Under the pieces are notes generated by a model, which worked only from the letters and a program-made list of their open reading frames with translations, was not told where the DNA came from and searched no databases. Both the position numbers and the translations under genes were made by a program. From Candidatus Heimdallarchaeum aukensis (GTDB lineage: Archaea > Asgardarchaeota > Heimdallarchaeia > Heimdallarchaeales > Heimdallarchaeaceae), in contig CP084166.1 of NCBI GenBank assembly GCA_021513695.1, forward strand, positions 1,728,001-1,792,000: DNA of 64,000 bases, read 5' to 3'. Below, piece by piece: positions 1,561 to 48,652 of the stretch; the first letter of the stretch is position 1; the number at the start of each line of letters is the position of its first letter.

Positions 1561-3858
1561 TTAAAGTTCATAATCATGGGTATGAAACATTACATCGCGG
1601 TTTACAGCTGCTTTAAACATCTGTAGAAGTAATTCATTGTCTGTTCTAATTGCTACAGGCACAGCATCTGGCACCAAAAATGCAAAGATTGCTTCGTCAA
1701 AACCATCCTTAATACCACAGAAAACATCCTTTTTATCGTATTGTCTTAATTTCAAACCTACAAATCGTTCTTTCAAGTTAATTAGAGCATTTCTAAATTT
1801 TCCAGAAGAAAAATCAGAAACAAGTGTTACTCTATTTGCTTTGGTGAACATTGCCATTTCTTCTAACAATGATTCTTCCAGATACGGTGTTATTACTAAC
1901 AACTCTCTACTAGCTCGCATACTTAAATCAGTTAAACTTGCAAGAATTGCTTCTTCCCCAACAATCACTGATACATTGTGATGTCCTCGAATGTTAATAG
2001 AATTTGCTGCTTTATCAATCTGCTTTAACTCACCCTCTCTTGTATTTATTATTTGATAATAGGCTGATGCTTTTTCTTGTAACAAAGCGAGTGTTTCCAT
2101 TATTGCTTCATCAACATCCTTGATAACAGAAGCTACTTGAGCAACAATAGTATCTATTTGTACTTCTTCTGCCTCAATTATTTTAGATGTCAGTTGTTCC
2201 TTTATTTCTTCTGTTTTTTCTTCCATAATTTTTATATCATTGTTTATATGATTCGCAATTTTGTCTTTAGTCTTTAACACTTTGCTTGAAAAGTCTTTAT
2301 CAAACATGGCCAATTTTTCTTTGAAATCTCCACCAATTTTTTTAATATCATCTTTTGTTTTATTTAACTCTGTATTCACTTCATTCTTGAAATCTATCAT
2401 TGTTTTTGAATGCTCATCATGGAACTGCTGGACATTTCCTATAATGTTCGACGAAGTGTTGTCCATACTTTCGGAAATAGTCTTGATTAAATTTGAACTA
2501 ACATCTCTACATGATTCGTAAGAAGAGGTTACATATTTCTCGACTTCATTTTGGATTTTGTTCAGAAGTTCATCAGGGAGGAGTTCTATTTTTTCAGTTG
2601 TTTCTGCTATTATTTTACTCTTTTTTGTTTTAATACTTGTTACTCCACTTAGTTGAAAATGATCAATTTTTTCACGTAGTTTATCTTTTGTTTCGTTAAT
2701 TTTTAAGACGTGTTGATCTACTATTTGGAGACCACTTTCTGAAAAATTATTAGCAAGCAACCTCATTCCATCTCTTACTTCCTGTAGTTTCTCGATTAAC
2801 GGGCTTGCTTTCTTTTTCTTCAGATCTTCTGCGAGATGTAAAGCATCAACTATAGTAGAAGAAAGTTTGTTTATGTTTCTATCAATTTGTTCTACAGATC
2901 TTCTTAGTTCTTGTGTTTGGCGAGTTTGTTCTGTTAAGATGAGATTAATATCTTGCTGCAAGGATTCAGCCAGGTTACGACTCTCCTTAATCCAAGCTTC
3001 AAAAGTATCTTCCCATATTCTTCTATATTCTTTTAGAAACTCTTGTTGTAATTCATTTGCATAGTTTAAATGTTCCTTCAAGACATTATCAAGTTCTGGT
3101 GCAAACTTATCTAAAAAATCTTTATGATTCTCCGTATGTGACTCAAGACCATTCTTTAAGATTTTAAATAATTCTGAAAAATTAGCTGAAAGCTGTTGTT
3201 CTATATTTTTTTTGTTTAATTCACTTCTTTTTTTTGCAGAATGTTCAAACTGTTTTATGAAAGCATCTAATTCTTGCAAATAAGACTCCATTCTGAGAGA
3301 TATGGCAATAGATTGGTTCTGAGCTTCTGCAATTTCTTTAGAAATCAAATTAACTGTTTCATCAAGGATATTAAATGATTCATTTTCTATTGCTTCAGTC
3401 ATTTCTACAAATTGAGAATTAACAGAATCAGTAAGTTGCTTTATTAACCCACTTACAATATGGATATCAAATATGTGCTCATCACTTGAAGTATCTAGTT
3501 TACCACCAAATTGCTTTCGTTTTTCTTTATAAGATGCTGCGTCATTCTTTAAACTATTTATTATTCCTTCAATTGCATATAATGTATCACGTTCTACTGT
3601 TATATATTGTTTCAAAAAAGGAAAAACAGCGAGATATTGTGGAGTTAAACCTTGAATTTTTTTAAGAAAACCGATCTCTTCCAGATTTCTTACTGACTGA
3701 ACTGTTGATAGAGCATCTAGTTGAGTTATAACCATGATTTCGCCTATCGTCGCTTTTCCTAAGCCAAGTATTGTTGTATATATTTTTATATCATTTTCAT
3801 TTAGACCAATTCTGGTTAATAATGGAGGTAATATGTTAACATCACTCATTTGTTTCAC
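1561..3858 (-). CDS. TrmB-like wHTH regulator with ~550-aa central coiled-coil and TrmB-C-like C-terminal domain
   Basis: N-terminus LLTRIGLNENDIKIYTTILGLGKATIGEIMV... matches TrmB-type wHTH; long heptad-rich K/E/Q-rich middle; C-terminus ...LLVITPYLEESLLEEM... resembles TrmB C-domain. Confidence 0.45.
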   Translation of the reverse strand: MKQMSDVNILPPLLTRIGLNENDIKIYTTILGLGKATIGEIMVITQLDALSTVQSVRNLEEIGFLKKIQGLTPQYLAVFPFLKQYITVERDTLYAIEGIINSLKNDAASYKEKRKQFGGKLDTSSDEHIFDIHIVSGLIKQLTDSVNSQFVEMTEAIENESFNILDETVNLISKEIAEAQNQSIAISLRMESYLQELDAFIKQFEHSAKKRSELNKKNIEQQLSANFSELFKILKNGLESHTENHKDFLDKFAPELDNVLKEHLNYANELQQEFLKEYRRIWEDTFEAWIKESRNLAESLQQDINLILTEQTRQTQELRRSVEQIDRNINKLSSTIVDALHLAEDLKKKKASPLIEKLQEVRDGMRLLANNFSESGLQIVDQHVLKINETKDKLREKIDHFQLSGVTSIKTKKSKIIAETTEKIELLPDELLNKIQNEVEKYVTSSYESCRDVSSNLIKTISESMDNTSSNIIGNVQQFHDEHSKTMIDFKNEVNTELNKTKDDIKKIGGDFKEKLAMFDKDFSSKVLKTKDKIANHINNDIKIMEEKTEEIKEQLTSKIIEAEEVQIDTIVAQVASVIKDVDEAIMETLALLQEKASAYYQIINTREGELKQIDKAANSINIRGHHNVSVIVGEEAILASLTDLSMRASRELLVITPYLEESLLEEMAMFTKANRVTLVSDFSSGKFRNALINLKERFVGLKLRQYDKKDVFCGIKDGFDEAIFAFLVPDAVPVAIRTDNELLLQMFKAAVNRDVMFHTHDYEL

Positions 3859-22864: not shown

Positions 22865-23524
22865 TTAATATAGTTGTTCCAAGAGCCTATCAAGATGTTT
22901 TATCATTTCTTTTCTTAATACTTCTTTAGGTGGTTTTTCTAGAGTTTTAATAGCTGTCAAATCTTGTTCTAATATAATATGAGCTGCTATAGTACGAAGT
23001 ATATCATTGTACACACTTTCTGGAAGTTGATGTTCAACACTTGCTATAGGTTCTGCTTTGATCGTTTTTTTCTTTGCTCTAACCGTAGATTTAACAACAG
23101 CTTTTTCTTTTGGAACAATCATTTTTTCTCCAGAGACTAGTGCTCTTTCTTGTTCTTCTATTGCTTGAAAGGTTGTTTTTTCTGTCTTAATGTCTACTGG
23201 CTTCATTACCTCCCGTATTGTTTCTTTACCAAAATCTTCTAATTTTCCTGCAAATATCTCTTGCAATTTTTCTTCTGATTCTTCGTGCTCGATATTTACA
23301 ATCTTATACTTAGAAGAAAAGAATCTTGCATTTAGATTAGTTGCAGCTCTCCCTGCAGCATAAGCTAATGATCTGGTTATACCTGGTTTTCTGTATATCC
23401 AGATCTTTTTTGGTTCCCGAGCTAAAATTAAATATGCCCCATTACCTTTCTCCAAACTTGAAATATCAGCACCTACCTCTGAATAACTCCCATCTTTTTT
23501 TACCGAGAAGATTCTTATTGTCAT
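22865..23524 (-). CDS. gelsolin-like domain protein with C-terminal helical extension (putative Asgard gelsolin, 1-domain + X architecture)
   Basis: N-terminal ~100 aa align to a gelsolin repeat by eye: IRIFSVK.. / GAYLIL(DAYVIL) / IWIYRKPG..SLAYAAGRAATNLN (hYWhG..s..E.gaAA) / KIVNIEHEESEEKLQEIF (vqhREvqG.ES..F..yF); likely start is M9 of the track ORF. Confidence 0.4.
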   Translation of the reverse strand: MTIRIFSVKKDGSYSEVGADISSLEKGNGAYLILAREPKKIWIYRKPGITRSLAYAAGRAATNLNARFFSSKYKIVNIEHEESEEKLQEIFAGKLEDFGKETIREVMKPVDIKTEKTTFQAIEEQERALVSGEKMIVPKEKAVVKSTVRAKKKTIKAEPIASVEHQLPESVYNDILRTIAAHIILEQDLTAIKTLEKPPKEVLRKEMIKHLDRLLEQLY

Positions 23525-23607
23525 TGGATCCCCCTTAAAATTACACACTAGTAATATAATCAGAAGGGAATACTAAAATTTTTCCTTTTTTCTTCAAACT
23601 AAATGTA

Positions 23608-24327
23608 CTATTCTGCATAAAGAGTTTTATCTTCTATATTTGCATTTGAAAACGCTCTTTTTCTTCGTAAACAGCTTTCACATTTTCCGCAATGAATTGG
23701 TCTTCTATCTTTAGTCCATCCAGTAAGTCTGTAACATGAAGACGAAAACTCATATTTTGCACTTTTTTCATTTAGAAACAACACAATATCCTTTTTATCA
23801 GAAGCAATAAAAGGAGAAATAACTTTTACTTCATTCATACAACCAAGTTTCATAGCGGCATTCATTCGTTCAACAAAATCTTTGGTGTTGTCAGGAAAGG
23901 TTTCTCCCTCTTCTATATTTGCACCAAAGATGATATCTACTGTATTTTTTTCGCTGTCTGCTGCCGATGCAGCTATAGACAAAAATAGTAAATTTCTACC
24001 TGGAACCCACACTTTTTTTGCAGAATCTATGGTTATATCCTTGTCATCTAGTTTTTCAAATTCTTTAAATTCAGGGAGTTCTTCTACAGATTGAGAGAGA
24101 TTGGAACCTGCTTTAGCAGTAAACTCCTTTAGAAATGGCAGAGAGATAATTTTTGATTCTATAGAGAAAAAATCTGCAAATGTCTTATTAGTTCTCTCTA
24201 TTACTTCATCTTCTTTACTCCCATACAAGAATGATAGTAAAGAGACTGAATCATATTTTTCTAATGCCCAATACAAGCAAGCTGTAGAATCTAATCCTCC
24301 TGAAAATAATACTATGGCTTTTTTCAT
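23608..24327 (-). CDS. queC: 7-cyano-7-deazaguanine synthase
   Basis: PP-loop LFSGGLDST; C-terminal zinc Cys cluster CGKCESCLRRKRAF. Confidence 0.85.
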   Translation of the reverse strand: MKKAIVLFSGGLDSTACLYWALEKYDSVSLLSFLYGSKEDEVIERTNKTFADFFSIESKIISLPFLKEFTAKAGSNLSQSVEELPEFKEFEKLDDKDITIDSAKKVWVPGRNLLFLSIAASAADSEKNTVDIIFGANIEEGETFPDNTKDFVERMNAAMKLGCMNEVKVISPFIASDKKDIVLFLNEKSAKYEFSSSCYRLTGWTKDRRPIHCGKCESCLRRKRAFSNANIEDKTLYAE

Positions 24328-24366: not shown

Positions 24367-25710
24367 TTAATCCTTTCTCAATTTTACTATGAAAAAGCCT
24401 TCTGTATTATGTAAGCTAGGAGTTAACATTTGTGCTTTATTTTCAAGTGATTCTATTCTTATCCCTATCATCGGTTCCATTTTTTCGATACTAAAATTTG
24501 TGTTCTTGGAGAGAAACTCCTCTATTACATATACATTTTCATCTTTAAATATTGAACAAGTTGAGTAGGTAATTTCTCCTCCGTCCTTAAGTACTCTTGC
24601 TGATTCATCCAACAACTTCTTTTGAATAGCTGTATAAAATTTCAGATCTCTCTTTTCCAATCGAAATTTCGTTTCAGGCCGGGTAGAATAAGTCCCAGAA
24701 CCTGTACATGGCGGATCAAGAAGTATTTTGTTAAACTTATTATTGAATAAACTTGATATCATTCTTGAATCAGTGTTTATAATCTCAATTCCATTAACTC
24801 CTAGAAGATCCATTCTCTTTTTTAAGATAGATACTCTTCGTTCATTTAACTCACAAGCAAAAATATTGTTTCCTGAATTATTTAGTGCAGCTAAATGAGA
24901 AGTTTTTTGTCCTGGTGCAGCACATACATCTAGAATAAGATCATGAGGCTTTGGTTTTACGATTAAAGAAACCAATGCTGAAGATTTTTGTTGAATTACT
25001 ATTTTTCCATTTTTGAAAATATCTAATCTAGGAAGAGCTACTGGAGACTTTTTAATTTGTATTAAGTTTGGTATATCCTTATCAACTTCATATTCAATGT
25101 CAAAAGAGGTTAATACTTGCTCTATTTCCTTCATTTCAGATTTTAAGGTGTTTACCCTTATGTATGTCGGAAGAACAGTTTGGATAGAATTAAGAAAATC
25201 CAGTGAAAAGTTCTCTCCCCATTGAGAAAATAACTTTCTGATGATCCATGTTGGAGTGTAATATTTCAGGGATAATAGGCTGATTTCATCTTTATTTCTT
25301 TCTAACATCTGCATTGACACAGATTCAATATTCTTCACAATGCCTTCAAAATCAAAATTTTTGTTGTTATTGAAGAGAGTGTTGAACTCTTTTTTTATGT
25401 CTCCTAACATCGAACTGTACACTTGAGCATATTTAACAATAAAAGTGATTAAACGTAACAATGCCTTTTTTTCGAATGAGAGTTTCTTTAGTGAGAAATA
25501 AGAAGAACTTTCTTTTATATAAAGATCTATCACATTTAATTTCCCAATAATATTAAAAACGAAGTAGTATATCCTTGCTTCTTCATCTTTGTTCAATGTA
25601 TATTCAGATCTAACCCTATTCATTGCGTTTCGAATAGAATCTCCCTTTTCTACTTGAACCAATGCAGAAAGAATGGGTTTTATGATTATGTTCATGTCGC
25701 TCCCTCTCAT
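24367..25710 (-). CDS. NOL1/NOP2/Sun-family RNA cytosine-C5 methyltransferase (RsmB/NSUN-like)
   Basis: N-terminal NusB-like region; SAM motifs DVCAAPGQKTSHLA, DPPCTGSGT, catalytic Cys TCSI; TEGFFIVKL C-terminus. Confidence 0.8.
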   Translation of the reverse strand: MRGSDMNIIIKPILSALVQVEKGDSIRNAMNRVRSEYTLNKDEEARIYYFVFNIIGKLNVIDLYIKESSSYFSLKKLSFEKKALLRLITFIVKYAQVYSSMLGDIKKEFNTLFNNNKNFDFEGIVKNIESVSMQMLERNKDEISLLSLKYYTPTWIIRKLFSQWGENFSLDFLNSIQTVLPTYIRVNTLKSEMKEIEQVLTSFDIEYEVDKDIPNLIQIKKSPVALPRLDIFKNGKIVIQQKSSALVSLIVKPKPHDLILDVCAAPGQKTSHLAALNNSGNNIFACELNERRVSILKKRMDLLGVNGIEIINTDSRMISSLFNNKFNKILLDPPCTGSGTYSTRPETKFRLEKRDLKFYTAIQKKLLDESARVLKDGGEITYSTCSIFKDENVYVIEEFLSKNTNFSIEKMEPMIGIRIESLENKAQMLTPSLHNTEGFFIVKLRKD

Positions 25711-25734: not shown

Positions 25735-26544
25735 TTAGTATTGGTCATAATCATGAGGAGTTTTTAATTTTATTGAATCTTGAGGGAGAAATAGCGTTGG
25801 TATCTCAACATCCAGCTGAATTGTTTGTGCAAGTTTTCTAAGTAATATATTCAAATAGTCAATGTGGTTCAAATATATTAGGTTTAAGTTTGCCTTTTTG
25901 TACAAAGGCAACTTTTGTGAATTTATATGAAAAGAGATTACAGTATCCACACCCGAATCCTTTATTACAAATATATCATCTATGGTAAATGGAGCAGAAG
26001 GATTTTCTACAATTAGTTTGGAGTTATCATCTTTCAAATCTAAAGACACCCAATTTTTTGAGAGATGAGAGAGAGATGTCATGAATTCGTCAAAAGAAAT
26101 AGGTGATACAGAGAATATTGTACTATTAGAATTATGTAAAGTGATAGGTTCTTCATCGAGATAATTCATCCCAATTGTATTTAGAAAATACTGAAAACCA
26201 GTTTTAAACAGCCAACTACGTGAAATATTGATTGTAATAATATTGTTAATTGCTAATGTCCTTATTAATTCATATTCTTTATCAATAAGCTGACCTTTCT
26301 CAGCCTTTGCAAAAGGTATAGACTCTGCTTTTAATACAAGATTCAATTTGTTTTCTAACATAAAACCGATATTGCTATTCGAAAAATAAGGAGTAACTAA
26401 TATACCAGATACATGAAGAGCTTTCAATCTTTCTTCATTAGTTGGAGCAAACTCAACAATAAAAGCTTGAGAGGACATATTATCAGTAATAAATGTTCTC
26501 TTGAGCTGTTTAAGAAATTGATAGAGTGAAGTGACCATGAACAA
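25735..26544 (-). CDS. hypothetical protein (gene Y of the 7-deazaguanine operon)
   Basis: ORF embedded between queD and the NSUN methyltransferase on the same strand with short gaps; no motif recognised. Confidence 0.3.
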   Translation of the reverse strand: MFMVTSLYQFLKQLKRTFITDNMSSQAFIVEFAPTNEERLKALHVSGILVTPYFSNSNIGFMLENKLNLVLKAESIPFAKAEKGQLIDKEYELIRTLAINNIITINISRSWLFKTGFQYFLNTIGMNYLDEEPITLHNSNSTIFSVSPISFDEFMTSLSHLSKNWVSLDLKDDNSKLIVENPSAPFTIDDIFVIKDSGVDTVISFHINSQKLPLYKKANLNLIYLNHIDYLNILLRKLAQTIQLDVEIPTLFLPQDSIKLKTPHDYDQY

Positions 26545-30967: not shown

Positions 30968-31438
30968 ATGAGCTTGGATGAAGAAGAATTTTTTGCAAGA
31001 TTAGCTATTGAAGCAAATGAATTAAAACGTGAGCTTCCTACTTTTAAACCAGTTGATGGAGATATGACTCATTTACGTGGATTTATTTTTGGAACAGGAC
31101 TTTATGAAGGAGGAGTATTTGTTTTAGACATAATCATCCCTAGAGAATACCCATTTAAACCACCAAAAGTAGAATGTTTAACAAAAATTTTTCATCCTAA
31201 CTTCTTTAATAGAAGAATTTGTGTAGGGGTTTTAGGCGCAGATTGGACACCAGCAAATAACCTTGTTGATGTAATTGAGAGCATACGATTTTTGCTTGGT
31301 GAACCAAATCCTGACGATCCTTTAAATTCCACGGCAGCCAACTTAATGAAAAGAGATCTTAAAGCATTTGAACAAAAAGCCAGAGAATACGTGGAAAAAT
31401 ACGCATCATTTAGTCAAATACAAGAATATGGTTTATAA
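30968..31438 (+). CDS. Ubiquitin-conjugating enzyme E2 (UBC fold)
   Basis: HPN motif and active-site Cys: KIFHPNFFNRRICVGVL; downstream W..A..L..V..SI..LL.EPNPDDPLN pattern typical of UBC domain. Confidence 0.8.
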   Translation: MSLDEEEFFARLAIEANELKRELPTFKPVDGDMTHLRGFIFGTGLYEGGVFVLDIIIPREYPFKPPKVECLTKIFHPNFFNRRICVGVLGADWTPANNLVDVIESIRFLLGEPNPDDPLNSTAANLMKRDLKAFEQKAREYVEKYASFSQIQEYGL

Positions 31439-34426: not shown

Positions 34427-35437
34427 GTGGTTACCGTGTCAGAAATAGTACAACAAATAATTGATTCTGGTGCAATTTATCTAGTTAATCCAGCTTTAAT
34501 TCAAACAACAGTAGATGACTTTTTAGATAAATATGGACATTTATTAGATGTAATTGGTTTATATGCAAAGGGGAGTAATGGTTTCACTTTTTTCCCCAGT
34601 AATAATGCCCCAAAACATCCAAATTTAAGTATTTATTTCCATTCCTTCTGCACTATTGCAGATAATATGGGAATAAAAGTTGATGCCTTTAGTCATGTAC
34701 ATCGAGATAGTTTTTTGGTTCAAAATGCAGATTTCAGGGAACAAAGTAGTGATGGAGAGAAAATTGATTTGTTCGCATGTCCAAGTCATCCTTACATTAA
34801 TCAGTATAACTCTGCCATTGTTTCAGAAATCGTACAATATCCAGTTAATAAACTAGTTTTGGATAATATTTTATTTGCAAATTTAAAAGCATGTTTCTGC
34901 GATAGATGTAGAAGGTTATTTGCACAAAAATGGAATATTGAACGAGATTTCAGTTATGATTTCTTAAAATCAAGAGATTTTTATGATAATTGGGTTGAGT
35001 TTAGAACAACACTAATAGAAAATACACTAAGAGAGATTACAGATTCAATGAAACAGATCAAGAATGTTGATTTGGCATTTGTCATCAAGGCAGATAAAGA
35101 AACTAGCTATTTAACAGGAACAGAGGAGAATTTTGGACAGAATATAGCAAATATGCTTAAAATTACAAATAACATAATAACCCATGTTAATCCTTGGACA
35201 GAGATTCCCTCAGCTGGCAGTGAAGACTTCCAAAATCTTGTTAATGCCCTTTCACCACTTTTAGAACTATCAAAAACAGGAGTTGAACATTCATTGCTTT
35301 TCTGGGGTGTTAATGACAAAGAAAAATTAGATCTTGTTTTAAAGTTAAGCGAAGATTTGAACCCAAACAATATCTACATCCAAGATATAAAGCCAACAGA
35401 CTTCACAAAGTTAAGGCAAATTAATTTAGGTTTTTAA
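34427..35437 (+). CDS. hypothetical protein
   Basis: 336 aa ORF; Cys pair CFCDRCRR; first gene of a tightly packed three-gene unit. Confidence 0.3.
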   Translation: MVTVSEIVQQIIDSGAIYLVNPALIQTTVDDFLDKYGHLLDVIGLYAKGSNGFTFFPSNNAPKHPNLSIYFHSFCTIADNMGIKVDAFSHVHRDSFLVQNADFREQSSDGEKIDLFACPSHPYINQYNSAIVSEIVQYPVNKLVLDNILFANLKACFCDRCRRLFAQKWNIERDFSYDFLKSRDFYDNWVEFRTTLIENTLREITDSMKQIKNVDLAFVIKADKETSYLTGTEENFGQNIANMLKITNNIITHVNPWTEIPSAGSEDFQNLVNALSPLLELSKTGVEHSLLFWGVNDKEKLDLVLKLSEDLNPNNIYIQDIKPTDFTKLRQINLGF

Positions 35438-35438
35438 A

Positions 35439-36881
35439 ATGAAGGGGATCGAAGACGCAGTCGAAGAAATAAAACAAATGTTCTGGGGAGTTTTAAAGGG
35501 AAGTTACAGCCCTGAGGAAGAAGAAGATGTAAAAGTAAGACTTATTACTGCTTTATCAAGTTTAACTGCATTTGCAAAATCTTTTTTGCCAGAAGAACAA
35601 CAGCAAGAATATGAAGAACAATTTTCTCAAGCACGTAACATTTTACAGCGGTTTGATTCAGCTGGCCCTTGGTTCAGAGAGCTTCCAGAGATGATTGATG
35701 CAGTGTACAATATTCTTACCTATGCAAATGTATTGCAGATAGAAGTACAGCGATATAAAGACATGAATAATGATGCGCTACAATACTATAACATAAAACT
35801 TGAAAAAATAGAAATGAAGTTAAATTCACTTGAAAATGAACTTAGAAAAATAAAAACTTATGTTAAAGAGAGGATTACCAAAGAAGATTTGGTTAAAGAA
35901 AGCGAAATAATTGAAATTGAAGAAAAAGAAGAAAAACTTCTTCAAACTCAAGAGATTTTAGGCGAAGAGACTAAACTTGAAACTGTTGAAAGAGCAGAAG
36001 ACTTAGAAGAAGCACTTGAATTAGTAAAAGAAGAACCAGAGCTGTTACAGGTTGATGAAGCCGTTGAGATGGAAGAACCAGAAACAGTAGATGAAACTGT
36101 AATGTCTAAATTAGAGGATATTACAACTGAAGATATTAGTAGCATACCTAAAGATATTTCTAAAGAAGACATAAATTTAATTGAAGGAATCGAACTAGCC
36201 TCAAAACTTGAAGAAGATCACATCCCTATAAAGGAGAGTTTAGAAACAGAAAGTGAAAGTCTGCAAAAACTTGCAAATTTACTTCAAGCTCTTGATCCAG
36301 GCGACGATCTAGTTCTTTCACCATTAACTCAAAAACTATTAGAGCTAAGTGGTGATGAAGGAAAAGCTGAGATAGCAGCAGAAAAAAAGCAAGAATTTCA
36401 AATTGATGTGCAAGAGCAAACTGGCACTGAAGTAGCGAAAGAAGCTGAAATGAAAGATGCTAGTGTTCCTTCGTCAGTTGATAGATTAAGTGACATTTTG
36501 GCTTCACCTGACAAAATACAAGATGCAGCAACATTCATTTCAGCAATCCGTGACACTATTGATCAAGTAGCAAAACAAACTGATGATGATTCAACATCTA
36601 CCCCCTTAACTAAAATAATTGAAGCAGAAACTGGTCAAACAGATGAAACACCTTTAAGCATTGCTGATATTGAGAATATTATTAGCCATTTAGAAAACAA
36701 AAGAGAAAACGCAATAGAACGGGTAAAGAAACTCGAAAAAATAATTGCTACAGAAAAAATGGATGAAGCAGAATGGCAAGATTTAATGATAAGTGCACAA
36801 CAACACCTCCTACGAATAGAAGATACTCTTGATGGTTACAAAAGGGTATTAAACAAATTAAGAATGCAATTAGAAAAATGA
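35439..36881 (+). CDS. acidic coiled-coil protein (hypothetical)
   Basis: 480 aa, E/D-rich, long predicted helical/coiled-coil segments; starts 1 nt after upstream stop. Confidence 0.35.
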   Translation: MKGIEDAVEEIKQMFWGVLKGSYSPEEEEDVKVRLITALSSLTAFAKSFLPEEQQQEYEEQFSQARNILQRFDSAGPWFRELPEMIDAVYNILTYANVLQIEVQRYKDMNNDALQYYNIKLEKIEMKLNSLENELRKIKTYVKERITKEDLVKESEIIEIEEKEEKLLQTQEILGEETKLETVERAEDLEEALELVKEEPELLQVDEAVEMEEPETVDETVMSKLEDITTEDISSIPKDISKEDINLIEGIELASKLEEDHIPIKESLETESESLQKLANLLQALDPGDDLVLSPLTQKLLELSGDEGKAEIAAEKKQEFQIDVQEQTGTEVAKEAEMKDASVPSSVDRLSDILASPDKIQDAATFISAIRDTIDQVAKQTDDDSTSTPLTKIIEAETGQTDETPLSIADIENIISHLENKRENAIERVKKLEKIIATEKMDEAEWQDLMISAQQHLLRIEDTLDGYKRVLNKLRMQLEK

Positions 36882-44635: not shown

Positions 44636-47600
44636 TTAGCTAAAGAATGTGTCTAAACTTTTTATTCCCTCAACTTCTTTCCATGAGATCCCAAGTGTAT
44701 CCAATAGTTGTCCGAATGTTGATTGTACTAACTCTTTCATTTTTTTCACATCTACATCAGATTTAGTTGCAAGTTCAATAGGTTTGACGGAACACTCATC
44801 ACTTAAACTAATCTTATCATTTAGTAGACCGGAAGGTACTTTTATCTTAAAGGGTTTTGTTTTAACGAATGTTATAGTTGAGCCTACGGCTATATCACTA
44901 TTAGGATTTTTAATTAATAACTGTATTGCTGCTTGTAATGGTTGTGTCCAGCTCTCATAATCTTTTAATCTTTTGGAAAGAGTAACTGAAATAGCTAGGT
45001 CCTCAAGCTTAAACGATCTTTCATCGAGCCTTCTCATTGTTCGCTGGACAATACTGATTATTTTCTCTTTTGCAGTCTCCAATTCTTCAGGAGAATTAAC
45101 ATCAGAAAGAATTTTTAAAACTCTATCAAAAGCACGTTTGATTAGAGAAGGAGTGTTCTTTTTCTTGCCCATTAGGCCTTTTACAATTGGTGTTCCTTTT
45201 GTTGTTATTCCAAAGTAATTTTTCTTTCGATCTGAAAGGCAACAATATCTAAAAACGTAGTCAATCCCTAATTCAATTTGAAAATTATCTAAACTCCATT
45301 TCTTTAGTTCTTCAATATCACTTGATTTTGGTTGGTAGACAAATATGCTATCTGTATCACCATATAACACAGGAATTCCCAAATCTTTTTCACAGTGCTC
45401 TTTCGTTTTTGAAATTGCTTCTCTAGCCAAAGCAGTGGTCGATTCTGCCACTGGAGGACAATATAAAGCAAAGTTATCTGAACCTAAAACACCATATGAA
45501 TTGTGAACAACAATGCCAGTATCGCTTACAAACCAACCGTTTGATGTTTGAATGTCGTATACTGGTTCACTTGAAGAAGCGCGGATGTCTCTAATTCGAG
45601 TGGGAATTGTTCCATTATAGGATACAAAATCTTGCTTTTTACTATTGTATAGTTTACCAGACTGTTCAACAACTTGATAAATAGTTTGAATCACTTTACC
45701 ATTTTCAATCCGTTCGTCTCTACGAATATTTACAAATCTACCTGTTGCATTCGCAACCATAACAAGATCAGTAGCCAATTGTTTACTTACAGTTGTATAT
45801 TGAATATTATTACCTGTCATAGCTCTTTCATTATCTTTGAAGCATTCTTCTATGAAAATCTCGGCTCTGGATTTATTTAACAAATGAAGAGGAATTTTCC
45901 TATTGCTCATGTACTTTCCACAAAGCTGTTCTAGAATCCTAGACCAAATTTTAGAGTTTATTACAAATCCTTTTTCACTAGCATTAAAATTAAGATTCAT
46001 GCGAGATAAAACTTCATTAATCTTTTTCCATTTTTCTGGACTCTTATCTTGATTTTGAGAAATAAATATATGATTTTTCTGAATATTCCCTTCAGCGATA
46101 ACCCAAGCAATCAATCGAATGAGATCGTCATCAATTGATATTCTGGCATTATACCATAAACTTTCATCATCTCCAAGTGCAACTTTTATCTCTTCTGAAA
46201 GATTTTTTCTAATGGTTTCTCTTTCATACTCTTTTAGCTCAATCCATCTTGCTTTACATAATTTCAATTTTTTACTTTGACAGAATCGCTCTTTAATAGT
46301 ATGTATGCTTGGTTTGTCAACTGGTTGATTTATTTTGTTAGAAAAATTTTCAAAATCAGCTCTTGAGAATCCTATATACAACTCTTGATCATGAATTAAA
46401 TCTGGAATAAAGAGAGTTTCAGGAGGATTTTGAGTCAATGGAATATTTTGAACAACTAAAATTTTATCATTAATCTTCAATTCCCCAGCATATTTCTCAT
46501 CAACTTGAAAATTTGATAGTAGTACAGGAACTCTATGATTAGCTGTTAGTCTAATAGCTCTCCCATCCTCAAGTATAATTTTTATTAAGTCAGCAGGTGA
46601 CCTTTCCCAGTAACCTTCTATGTCCACAAATATAGGAGAACCAAAAGTTTCATCTTCTTCTCGAGAGATTGATAATATCTGATAATCTTGCCAACAGTCT
46701 GCGAGTTCTCCAATTGGGAGTTTAGTTACTATTTTTGTCTGCTTGTCCCTTACAATTACTTCTGCATCATAGGGCAAACAAGCATTTATGAGAACTTTCA
46801 ATGATGCTTGCATTACATTGCTTAGAACCCTTAGTGCTTTATCGACAGTCTGATCCTTTGCTTTTTCTTTAAACCAGTAGACCCTGATATCACGGATAAA
46901 GCCAATCAACATGGACATTATCCCAACTTTTTTTGTACATACCCAGTGATTTGTTTCTGGTATTTTATTTAGTTCCTTACATTCTTTATGCTTACACCTA
47001 ATAGTTTCATATGAAAGATTACGTGTCTTGATTATAGAGGGATAAAGACTGGCATAATCCAGGACATAAACATCCCACCATACTCCAGCTTTTGGTTGAA
47101 TAACAATGGCGCCTTGGTATTTCTTTCCTTTTATAATCGCCTCAGTAGATACCTCTCCTTTGGCTCGTAGTATGTCTTCTGGTAAAGGAATAAGATAGTT
47201 CCTTTTTCTGTGTTCATAATAGAACCAATTTTGTATCCAAATACTTACACTTGAACGGATAAAATCATCGATAGGCATCTTCGTCATTCTTGAAAGCATA
47301 AAGATAAGTTCCATCACTTGATTTTGACTAAAAGTAGTAAGTTCAAGAGTGATTACAGCGTCTTGGGCGTTATATTCTATAAGTTCCTCTAAACTTAGAT
47401 CCCAAATATCTTTTTCATGTTCAACCTTATGTTTGCCTAAGAGAGTTGAACCTAACTCATCTAAAGTTACCCTGTCATATTTTGCTCCAAAAGCATAAAT
47501 TCTCATCGATGCTTGCCTGAAAAAACGATAAAGATCAAGATGCAATCCATATTCAAGATAAGTATCATTCTGAGTTGAAGTTGTAGTTATAATTGGATTT

Positions 47601-48652
47601 TTCATGTCATTTATGCCCAAGTTTTTTGCACGTTTGTTTAAGTAAGGTAAGTCAAAATTATCTCCATTAAAAGTTATAATTATAGGATATTCATTTATTT
47701 TCTTAAAAACAGCTTCAATCAATTCTTTTTCATTTTCAAATTCAATAACTTTTATTTTCTCATCTTTTTTCTGAATAGACGTTTTTTCTTCATTTAAAAC
47801 ATATATTGACACATCACCACTTGTGTCGGCAAAGCCCACGGAGATAATTTTGTCATTAGCTACCTTGGGATCAGGAATCCTTCCTTTATCACTTTTTACT
47901 TCAATATCAAGAGAACAACGGGGAATATCAGGAATTGGTGAAAAAAATGTAGGAAAATAAGATAAAACCAATTCATGTATTTCACTAGGTTGACTAGAGA
48001 AAATTTTTGTTATTTCGTCCTTAATGGAAGGATCGATTTCTGGTTCTACTTGAATTATTTTTCCGTCCTTAATTTCATATAGCAATCCTGGAACAAGTAA
48101 ATTATCGTAGATATAATTGAGATGGTAACGGATATTAGCTTCATAGGAGGGCTTGATAAATTCTCTGAAGCTGTTTGATTTTCCTCCTATAGCTAGAGGA
48201 TTAGTACCATAAACTTTTGTAAGAGAAATAGAACTATCAGTTAACAAATTGTATTTTTCTACAGTTTCACAACCCACAAATTCCTTATTACCTTGTAGGA
48301 TACTTTCTACTTCACTAATAGTTTTTGTAGTCAACAAATAGGGTTTATGTTCTGTTTTGTCGTAAAAACGGTAAACTTTTCCATCTTCAGGATTATAAAA
48401 TTTCATGTATGCTTGCTCTTTTTCACCATCATAATTTACAGAAATAAGATAAGATGCAGGAAGATCAGAATGGACAACTAAAATATTAGAATTATCATCA
48501 AGGAAAGTGATGTTACTACTATCTGAATCGCTGGAAGACGATTCTTTAACTTCAACCCCTTTGATTTCTGAAACCTTTGTAGGAGAAGAGGATTTTTTAT
48601 TTCTCTCTATATTGGGGCGAGACAAAAATTTCTCTAAATTCATTTGACCCAT
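44636..48652 (-). CDS. polB: Family B DNA polymerase (intein-containing)
   Basis: Exo II FNGDNFDLPYL, Exo III YNAQDAVITLEL, Pol motif A DYASLYPSI, motif B split KVLINA|intein|SYGVLGS, motif C LYGDTDSIFV. Confidence 0.9.
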   Translation of the reverse strand: MGQMNLEKFLSRPNIERNKKSSSPTKVSEIKGVEVKESSSSDSDSSNITFLDDNSNILVVHSDLPASYLISVNYDGEKEQAYMKFYNPEDGKVYRFYDKTEHKPYLLTTKTISEVESILQGNKEFVGCETVEKYNLLTDSSISLTKVYGTNPLAIGGKSNSFREFIKPSYEANIRYHLNYIYDNLLVPGLLYEIKDGKIIQVEPEIDPSIKDEITKIFSSQPSEIHELVLSYFPTFFSPIPDIPRCSLDIEVKSDKGRIPDPKVANDKIISVGFADTSGDVSIYVLNEEKTSIQKKDEKIKVIEFENEKELIEAVFKKINEYPIIITFNGDNFDLPYLNKRAKNLGINDMKNPIITTTSTQNDTYLEYGLHLDLYRFFRQASMRIYAFGAKYDRVTLDELGSTLLGKHKVEHEKDIWDLSLEELIEYNAQDAVITLELTTFSQNQVMELIFMLSRMTKMPIDDFIRSSVSIWIQNWFYYEHRKRNYLIPLPEDILRAKGEVSTEAIIKGKKYQGAIVIQPKAGVWWDVYVLDYASLYPSIIKTRNLSYETIRCKHKECKELNKIPETNHWVCTKKVGIMSMLIGFIRDIRVYWFKEKAKDQTVDKALRVLSNVMQASLKVLINACLPYDAEVIVRDKQTKIVTKLPIGELADCWQDYQILSISREEDETFGSPIFVDIEGYWERSPADLIKIILEDGRAIRLTANHRVPVLLSNFQVDEKYAGELKINDKILVVQNIPLTQNPPETLFIPDLIHDQELYIGFSRADFENFSNKINQPVDKPSIHTIKERFCQSKKLKLCKARWIELKEYERETIRKNLSEEIKVALGDDESLWYNARISIDDDLIRLIAWVIAEGNIQKNHIFISQNQDKSPEKWKKINEVLSRMNLNFNASEKGFVINSKIWSRILEQLCGKYMSNRKIPLHLLNKSRAEIFIEECFKDNERAMTGNNIQYTTVSKQLATDLVMVANATGRFVNIRRDERIENGKVIQTIYQVVEQSGKLYNSKKQDFVSYNGTIPTRIRDIRASSSEPVYDIQTSNGWFVSDTGIVVHNSYGVLGSDNFALYCPPVAESTTALAREAISKTKEHCEKDLGIPVLYGDTDSIFVYQPKSSDIEELKKWSLDNFQIELGIDYVFRYCCLSDRKKNYFGITTKGTPIVKGLMGKKKNTPSLIKRAFDRVLKILSDVNSPEELETAKEKIISIVQRTMRRLDERSFKLEDLAISVTLSKRLKDYESWTQPLQAAIQLLIKNPNSDIAVGSTITFVKTKPFKIKVPSGLLNDKISLSDECSVKPIELATKSDVDVKKMKELVQSTFGQLLDTLGISWKEVEGIKSLDTFFS
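45500..46780 (-). other. Intein (427 aa) with LAGLIDADG-type homing endonuclease region, inserted in PolB motif B
   Basis: Begins CLPYDAEV (Cys1) after KVLINA, block B LTANH, LAGLIDADG-like LIRLIAWVIAEGN, ends IVVHN followed by +1 Ser (SYGVLGS). Confidence 0.8.

Follow-up and report, generated by a model that had tools for sequence, protein, structure and literature searches.

A divergent one-domain gelsolin-superfamily protein encoded beside QueC in Heimdallarchaeaceae

A 64,000-nucleotide stretch of the Candidatus Heimdallarchaeum aukensis genome (GenBank assembly GCA_021513695.1, contig CP084166.1, positions 1,728,001 to 1,792,000; hereafter the window, numbered from its first letter) encodes a protein, here called X, whose N-terminal ~92 residues are almost certainly a genuine but highly divergent gelsolin/ADF-H-fold domain, homologous to the gelsolins of Asgard archaea. 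Judged from its sequence, X is a divergent member of the gelsolin superfamily with a loose one-gelsolin-domain-plus-X (1DGelX) layout and not a canonical gelsolin. It is filed as non-canonical because it fails three family-defining tests: it stays below the Pfam threshold, has lost the D-W-G signature and lacks the side chains of the Ca2+ sites. Both gelsolins from Asgard archaea and the layout of one domain plus X were known from earlier publications, so X does not represent a new type of system. The novelty lies in the subfamily, which lacks both the W-x-G motif and the calcium ligands, carries its own tail module and linker motif, is unannotated and is tied to the QueC locus. The gene and its N-terminal domain are placed as follows.

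22865–23524, minus strand: complete coding sequence of the gelsolin-domain protein X, 219 codons plus TAA stop; coordinates and codons verified
23249–23524, minus strand: gelsolin-fold domain, residues 1–92, running strand, strand, short helix, strand, strand, long helix, strand, helix

The modeled N-domain forms a mixed five-strand β-sheet with a long helix on one face, running roughly along the strands, and a shorter C-terminal helix on the other, which is the arrangement of the gelsolin/ADF-H superfold. Its closest structural match is ProGel of Thorarchaeota, and ADF-H and Sec23/Sec24 domains score clearly lower than gelsolin repeats. The original prediction, read from the sequence, had taken the N-terminal ~100 residues for a gelsolin repeat on the strength of four landmark alignments. 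Both fold and profile–profile homology bear this out, and the landmarks map to strands A, C, D and E and to the long and short helices.

Direct searches gave no sign of this relationship. Neither X nor its seven closest relatives match the Pfam gelsolin model PF00626 even at E ≤ 10, and so they do not reach the 21-bit gathering threshold; a single-sequence search with X found no match in NCBIfam and nothing credible among PDB sequences, and a profile built from the eight closest homologues alone did not reach the PDB gelsolins. The PF00626 search had been proposed as a check on the gelsolin assignment; used as a refutation, it would have been a false negative. The link to PDB gelsolins required an exhaustive family-profile search of 1.84 billion representative sequences, which found 30 proteins, together with bridging sequences. 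Outside the core family, the matches at E 4e-6 to 8e-4 are Asgard proteins, including one from Odinarchaeum LCB_4 (UniRef name "Gelsolin-like domain-containing protein") and a 91-residue Thorarchaeota protein of ProGel size. Thirteen Asgard bridging proteins match PF00626, four of them (P0029, P0032, P0033 and P0034) above the 21-bit gathering score. When 11 core-family N-domains were compared by hhalign with 12 distant relatives, most of which match PF00626, the alignment reached 99.2% probability (E 7e-20) and spanned 90 aligned columns with one single-residue gap. The pooled N-domain profile matches Thor 2DGel3 (1e-15), ProGel (3.5e-15), Heimdall 2DGel (1.5e-9) and human gelsolin (about 1e-7) in the PDB, as well as Loki 2DGel and villin.

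A precomputed PF00626 match is also missing from many close orthologues of the crystallized Thor ProGel; because these are true ProGel orthologues, the Pfam model under-detects Asgard gelsolin domains generally. Two further matches were rejected. The PDB adhesin 6xi3 (E 1.4e-5) reflects a match to a repeated 20-residue peptide (DGSYS..G.DISSL) in which no individual domain is significant, and only E 0.13 is reached when the family profile is used; a TnsA_C match was weak (E 0.02) and below the cut-off. X resembles no enzyme family in Pfam and PDB searches.

The signature motif, calcium sites and long helix were examined in a reference alignment that added ProGel, Loki 2DGel domain 1, Thor 2DGel3 domain 2 and human gelsolin G1 to the family. 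Below, A1 denotes the eight closest family members.

23387–23422, minus strand: degenerate D-W-G signature region, residues 35–46, from the reference and family alignments
23324–23374, minus strand: long helix, residues 51–67 (RSLAYAAGRAATNLNAR), aligned to the long helices of ProGel, 2DGel and human G1

The DWG signature separates gelsolins from cofilins in the work of the Robinson group (PMC7444086) and is called "WxG" in PMC9433394. In X it is lost at each position, with A35 in place of Asp, Y44 for Trp and K46 for Gly, the glycine being displaced to G48; Tyr at position 44 is invariant in the core family. At position 35 (23420–23422, minus strand), most of the family, the 93%-identical H. 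endolithica orthologue included, keeps Asp, and the Ala here is a lineage-specific change.

In human G1 numbering, D66 and E97 are the type II Ca2+ ligands and D109 is the type I ligand, at a site shared with actin E167. The type II side chains are absent from X, where D66 corresponds to G29 and E97 to L53, both invariant in A1. The type I side chain is likewise absent, D109 being replaced by N65, a column that is mostly Asn across the family, with Lys in some members. The same three columns read D, E, D in the Ca-binding 2DGel domains of Loki and Thor, and K, K, S in Ca-free ProGel. The X domain is therefore ProGel-like with its signature motif lost, and because every acidic Ca2+ ligand is replaced, any actin binding is predicted to be calcium-independent. 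No stretch of the protein is more conserved than the long helix (column conservation 0.85 vs 0.74 for the whole domain), which has 11 of residues 53–65 invariant in A1 and corresponds to the actin-binding helix of gelsolin and cofilin domains. In every source the X family is labeled "hypothetical protein" and has no Pfam domain, plausibly because the signature is lost and the Pfam model is weak.

Beyond the domain, the original prediction described a ~120-residue K/E-rich helical domain. Model confidence (predicted local distance difference test, pLDDT) and conservation divide this region differently, into a variable disordered linker of ~70 residues and a conserved two-helix module of ~54 residues.

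23030–23248, minus strand: K/E-rich linker, residues 93–165, predicted disordered
23114–23143, minus strand: short linear motif in the linker, residues 128–137 (ALVSGEKMIV), from the family alignment
22868–23029, minus strand: C-terminal module, residues 166–219, two amphipathic helices with a K-P-P-K turn between them

The linker has pLDDT <50 in both structure models, a column conservation of 0.40, and a length of 46 to 100 residues among relatives. It is rich in K, E, S and T (12 K and 11 E in the 71 residues counted, 95–165). Its only well-conserved columns among the 23 distinct orthologues are three hydrophobic positions followed by [Y/S]-G-E-K. The module comprises helices at 169–186 and 200–218 (pLDDT 66–85), with a column conservation of 0.62 and an essentially gap-free alignment across Heimdallarchaeaceae, Kariarchaeaceae and the other relatives. 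L203, L215 and Y219 are invariant even in relatives of 21–26% identity, and in all relatives but one the module's ...LL-x-LY ending falls at the C-terminus or within 3 residues of it. In the relative from Wukongarchaeota, a similar helix-turn-helix is present in condensed form, as two tandem copies.

By Pfam and PDB searches the module belongs to no known family, being neither a villin headpiece, nor a WH2 motif, nor a second gelsolin repeat. Its profile has no credible sequence match in the PDB; the isolated tails of 15 family members have no Pfam match at E ≤ 10, including villin headpiece PF02209 and WH2 PF02205, and neither of these models is matched in Pfam by the whole protein. A WH2-like reading of the tail (an amphipathic helix followed by h-K-x-h) and one as an ESCRT (endosomal sorting complex required for transport) MIM-like motif were both dropped since, judged by eye, the conserved positions do not coincide.

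Among members with an assigned taxon, which P0018 and P0019 lack, the subfamily is confined to Heimdallarchaeia, with a partial relative in Wukongarchaeota. Its core occurs only in Heimdallarchaeota genomes and metagenome-assembled genomes, represented by 13 GTDB species representatives plus metagenomic copies; the representatives include AB_125 and the complete Heimdallarchaeum genome, and the gene is conserved in all 13 that the scan recovered. The closest relative, at 93% identity, is the Ca. Heimdallarchaeum endolithica orthologue, and more distant full-length members are found in Kariarchaeaceae (~26% identity). Kariarchaeaceae also encode P0110, a canonical D..W-I-G gelsolin domain, recovered with a canonical Asgard gelsolin-domain profile; that search is dominated by Thor ProGel orthologues and finds only proteins sharing exact words with the query. 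Because the two kinds coexist there, the X family represents a paralogous lineage of its own rather than simply "the" class gelsolin.

Comparison with characterized gelsolins places X nearest to ProGel and the 1DGelX class. ProGel (PDB 7c2f; PMC7444086) is the domain alone (~92 residues), to which X adds the ~70-residue linker and the 54-residue helical tail. ProGel keeps D-W-G (D..W-R-G), in contrast to A35 (Asp in relatives), Y44 and K46 of X, and structure-based sequence identity between the two is 17–18%. The 1DGelX architecture has been reported for Thor, Loki, Odin and Heimdall lineages, and X shares with it a single N-terminal gelsolin domain followed by a non-gelsolin C-terminal region predicted to be helical or coiled-coil (PMC7444086, PMC9433394). 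Thor 1DGelX works without calcium (PMC7444086), as is predicted for X from its missing ligands.

The protein contains no second gelsolin repeat, and its layout is the single-gelsolin-domain-plus-X layout of Akil et al. 2020. The original prediction of such a layout thus stands at the level of that class, but the module is not common to the Asgard counterparts recovered here; the class is set by layout alone, and the tail comparison is with these recovered proteins. Seven recovered one-domain-plus-X proteins (P0021, P0022, P0025, P0028, P0029, P0031 and P0032, including Odinarchaeum LCB_4 WEU39881.1) keep W-K-G, unlike X, and share a different, apparently β-rich C-terminal domain, so that their tails are visibly unlike that of X; family-profile matches stop short of the C-terminal domains of recovered one-domain-plus-X proteins. 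Since these proteins share another C-terminal domain, the tail of X marks a separate subfamily, which also differs from the layout-defined class in its fixed genomic position beside QueC. The C-terminal domain of the seven is itself without a Pfam assignment (VPPG..RE.IIIGD..Y.V.E..FFG...PPEG.FF.E.Y.PRV...G.V..IEFLK) and comes after a Pro/Thr-rich linker.

Other relatives are further removed. Asgard 2DGel proteins (Thor 7c2g/7c2h, Loki 7whg, Heimdall 7whf) and eukaryotic gelsolin, villin, adseverin and fragmin have 2–6 repeats, whereas X has one; such multi-repeat gelsolins carry type I and/or type II Ca2+ sites and the WxG motif, both absent from X. The WH2-like LRRV linker motif of 2DGel (PMC7444086) is also absent, and the C-terminal headpiece of villin (PF02209) is not detectable in the tail. 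Cofilins (ADF-H) differ from X in having a WP motif and additional helices. The gelsolin-like domains of Sec23/Sec24, which are not known to bind actin, are parts of large multidomain COPII proteins, unlike X.

Taken as a whole, X is probably a calcium-independent actin regulator with a tethered C-terminal second contact; for actin regulation as such, argued from fold and family, the chances are somewhat better than even. The ProGel-like domain would attach to actin at the barbed-face cleft, using its conserved long helix. The tethered C-terminal helices, perhaps also with the G-E-K motif, would give a second contact, be it with the filament side, through self-association or with a partner protein, and with this contact a protein that binds the monomer face only weakly would become able to sever, bundle or cap filaments. 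In Thorarchaeota, 1DGelX needs no calcium to sever and nucleate, while ProGel as a bare domain is only a weak binder, and Akil et al. proposed that domain X confers such activity on 1DGelX (PMC7444086). For X, both the actin binding and the whole role of the tail are inferred.

One variant of this model keeps actin binding and gives the C-terminal helices a mainly regulatory role in place of a second actin site, either as an autoinhibitory latch onto the long helix, comparable to the C-terminal latch helix of gelsolin, or in dimerization that cross-links filaments. The tail offers some encouragement, with amphipathic helices that present an invariant hydrophobic face, an invariant Tyr close to or at the very C-terminus, a linker long and flexible enough to permit fold-back, and the tandem helix-turn-helix copies of the Wukongarchaeota homologue; a coiled coil is predicted for Thor domain X, and filaments are bundled by both ProGel and 1DGelX (PMC7444086). 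We nevertheless regard this variant as unlikely, as the predicted template modeling score is only 0.41–0.44 in the two models, there is no calcium switch to free a latch, and the argument is purely analogical.

Several observations qualify the actin-regulation reading. The D-W-G signature and all side-chain Ca2+ ligands are missing, and neither an actin nor a profilin gene lies within the 64-kb window, where tblastn with β-actin and all gelsolin N-domains returned no actin gene and no second gelsolin domain. Moreover, the only conserved gene linkage of X is to tRNA/rRNA-modification genes. The adjoining gene is the following.

23608–24327, minus strand: QueC (7-cyano-7-deazaguanine synthase; Pfam PF06508, E 1.4e-52), adjoining X upstream; a conserved context, not a proven partner

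In all 18 Heimdallarchaeaceae loci examined, QueC is followed on the same strand by X after a gap of 58–86 bp, in a cluster for preQ0, the archaeosine precursor. The adjacency persists in three local gene orders, though the X proteins share only 37–49% identity. In most loci the order is QueE-FolE2-DUF366-QueD-QueC-X, followed by convergent RsmB and a 269-residue protein (unk269); in locus L001, QueC-X is inverted along with the RsmB block; and in the window and in H. endolithica, unk269-RsmB lies between QueD and QueC. In Kariarchaeaceae, X is divergent from QueE and followed by unk268 and RsmB, with other outer flanks and without QueC as a neighbor. Around the Wukongarchaeota homologue there is no preQ0 context.

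This linkage raises an alternative in which the gelsolin fold of X no longer acts on actin and serves as an adaptor or scaffold for the neighboring RNA-modification genes, with partners in the preQ0 pathway (QueE, FolE2, DUF366, QueD, QueC) and/or the RsmB-type 5-methylcytosine (m5C) methyltransferase and the 269-residue protein; the long helix and C-terminal helices could, for example, tether or localize enzymes. The constancy of the QueC-X arrangement favors it, as do the loss of the WxG signature and Ca2+ ligands, the coexistence of a canonical gelsolin domain in Kariarchaeaceae, and the position of the Kariarchaeaceae X, still between the preQ0 operon and the unk268/RsmB pair despite its different outer flanks. 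Sec23/24 show, too, that the fold can be reused for non-actin binding. Yet a gelsolin domain in nucleoside or tRNA modification is without precedent, the QueC adjacency fails in Kariarchaeaceae and the preQ0 context in Wukongarchaeota, neighbors tend to stay close through local inversions without selection, and the closest structural and sequence relatives of X are all actin binders. Together with the promoter signals described below, these points make the adaptor role quite unlikely in our assessment. A stronger proposal is a long shot, namely that the conserved locus reflects real functional coupling in which the gelsolin domain organizes RNA-modification enzymes, or X links the actin cytoskeleton to the tRNA/ribosome-modification machinery, with the tail module and linker motif as docking elements.

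The start of the gene and the QueC-X spacer bear on how X is expressed.

23528–23534, minus strand: Shine–Dalgarno-like GGGGGAT, 10 nt 5′ of the ATG, seen directly in the sequence
23552–23559, minus strand: TATA-box-like TTATATTA, within the 83-bp QueC-X spacer, a possible own promoter

The open reading frame (ORF) list gives the gene as 22865–23548 on the minus strand, with 227 codons and a GTG start. We place the true start at the ATG at 23524 and not at the upstream GTG at 23548, because all homologues begin at the equivalent internal Met (MxxR[IV]FSV...) and GGGGGAT lies upstream; GGGG motifs occupy the equivalent position in orthologous loci when the upstream spacers are compared. The TATA-like TTATATTA is possibly a promoter of X's own, although as evidence it is weak in a genome of 32% GC (about 32% in the window). 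In most orthologous loci, a comparable element resembling a TATA box with its B recognition element (BRE), GAAAAAATGTTTTTATG, stands ~40 nt 5′ of the start. With this element and the Shine–Dalgarno motif in the spacer, X may be transcribed on its own in most lineages, and the suggestion of an independent promoter counts against the adaptor role. A scan for intrinsic terminator-like sites found none at QueC-X, but its consensus patterns are bacterial and carry no information for an archaeon.

Codon comparison with the 93%-identical orthologue from Ca. Heimdallarchaeum endolithica PR6, whose genome is complete, revealed 34 synonymous and 15 non-synonymous differences, with 10 of the 15 amino-acid replacements in the central linker. 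The two published Heimdallarchaeum species share 90% amino-acid identity (PMC8813620). Because synonymous differences outnumber non-synonymous ones in this way, X is a real gene and not a chance ORF. The absence of single-sequence matches in Pfam, NCBIfam or the PDB is what could be said for a chance ORF, or for a gelsolin likeness arisen by chance in an AT-rich genome; the evidence gathered already refutes this, and we consider it next to impossible.

The surrounding genes yielded several observations of their own. The DUF366 gene (PF04017; 27049–27672, minus strand) stands between FolE2/GCHY-1 and QueD/PTPS in every Heimdallarchaeaceae locus and also occurs in the Kariarchaeaceae operon; because it is constantly inside the preQ0 operon, this uncharacterized family is a candidate component of 7-deazaguanine/archaeosine-precursor synthesis. 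The 269-residue protein without a Pfam domain (25735–26544, minus strand) and the RsmB/F-type m5C RNA methyltransferase (24367–25710, minus strand) are paired in all Heimdallarchaeaceae gene orders, and in Kariarchaeaceae a 268-residue protein, also without a Pfam domain, takes the matching position beside RsmB. The 269-residue protein may be a partner or specificity subunit of the RsmB-type methyltransferase. An E2-like ubiquitin-conjugating enzyme (UQ_con, E 8e-33; 30968–31438, plus strand), a eukaryotic-signature protein, lies beside the preQ0 cluster, and a UQ_con gene also adjoins QueE in loci L001 and L003.

Elsewhere in the window, the genes are housekeeping ones: ribosomal proteins, SecY, intein-containing PolB, RadA, a class I aminoacyl-tRNA synthetase and the E2-like protein. 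The family B DNA polymerase (1338 residues; 44636–48652, minus strand) contains its intein as an Intein_splicing match at residues 646–1051. Two adjacent ORFs (34427–35437 and 35439–36881, both plus strand; 336 and 480 residues) are apparently translationally coupled and have no Pfam match at E ≤ 1e-4. A 765-residue protein (1561–3858, minus strand) combines an N-terminal TrmB-type helix-turn-helix with a long apolipoprotein-like helical region; a 769-residue Kariarchaeaceae protein of the same Pfam make-up (locus L019, 1–1563) lies ~6 kb from the gelsolin-family gene there.

Published surveys found Asgard gelsolins by BLAST and the WxG signature (PMC9433394). As the surveys depend on these and annotation on Pfam/InterPro, the X family has been invisible to both, and our literature search found no paper describing it. 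Asgard gelsolins are central evidence for a regulated actin cytoskeleton older than eukaryotes, and X enlarges the set of gelsolins known from Heimdallarchaeia. In X, strong selection persists on a gelsolin domain from which W-x-G and every Ca2+ ligand have gone, and the protein supplies two new candidate interaction elements, the two-helix C-terminal module and the short linker motif. If actin regulation is true, X would be a new Ca-independent regulator in the archaeal class that holds the closest known relatives of eukaryotes; if X is not an actin regulator, it would be an early case of the gelsolin fold reused outside actin biology.
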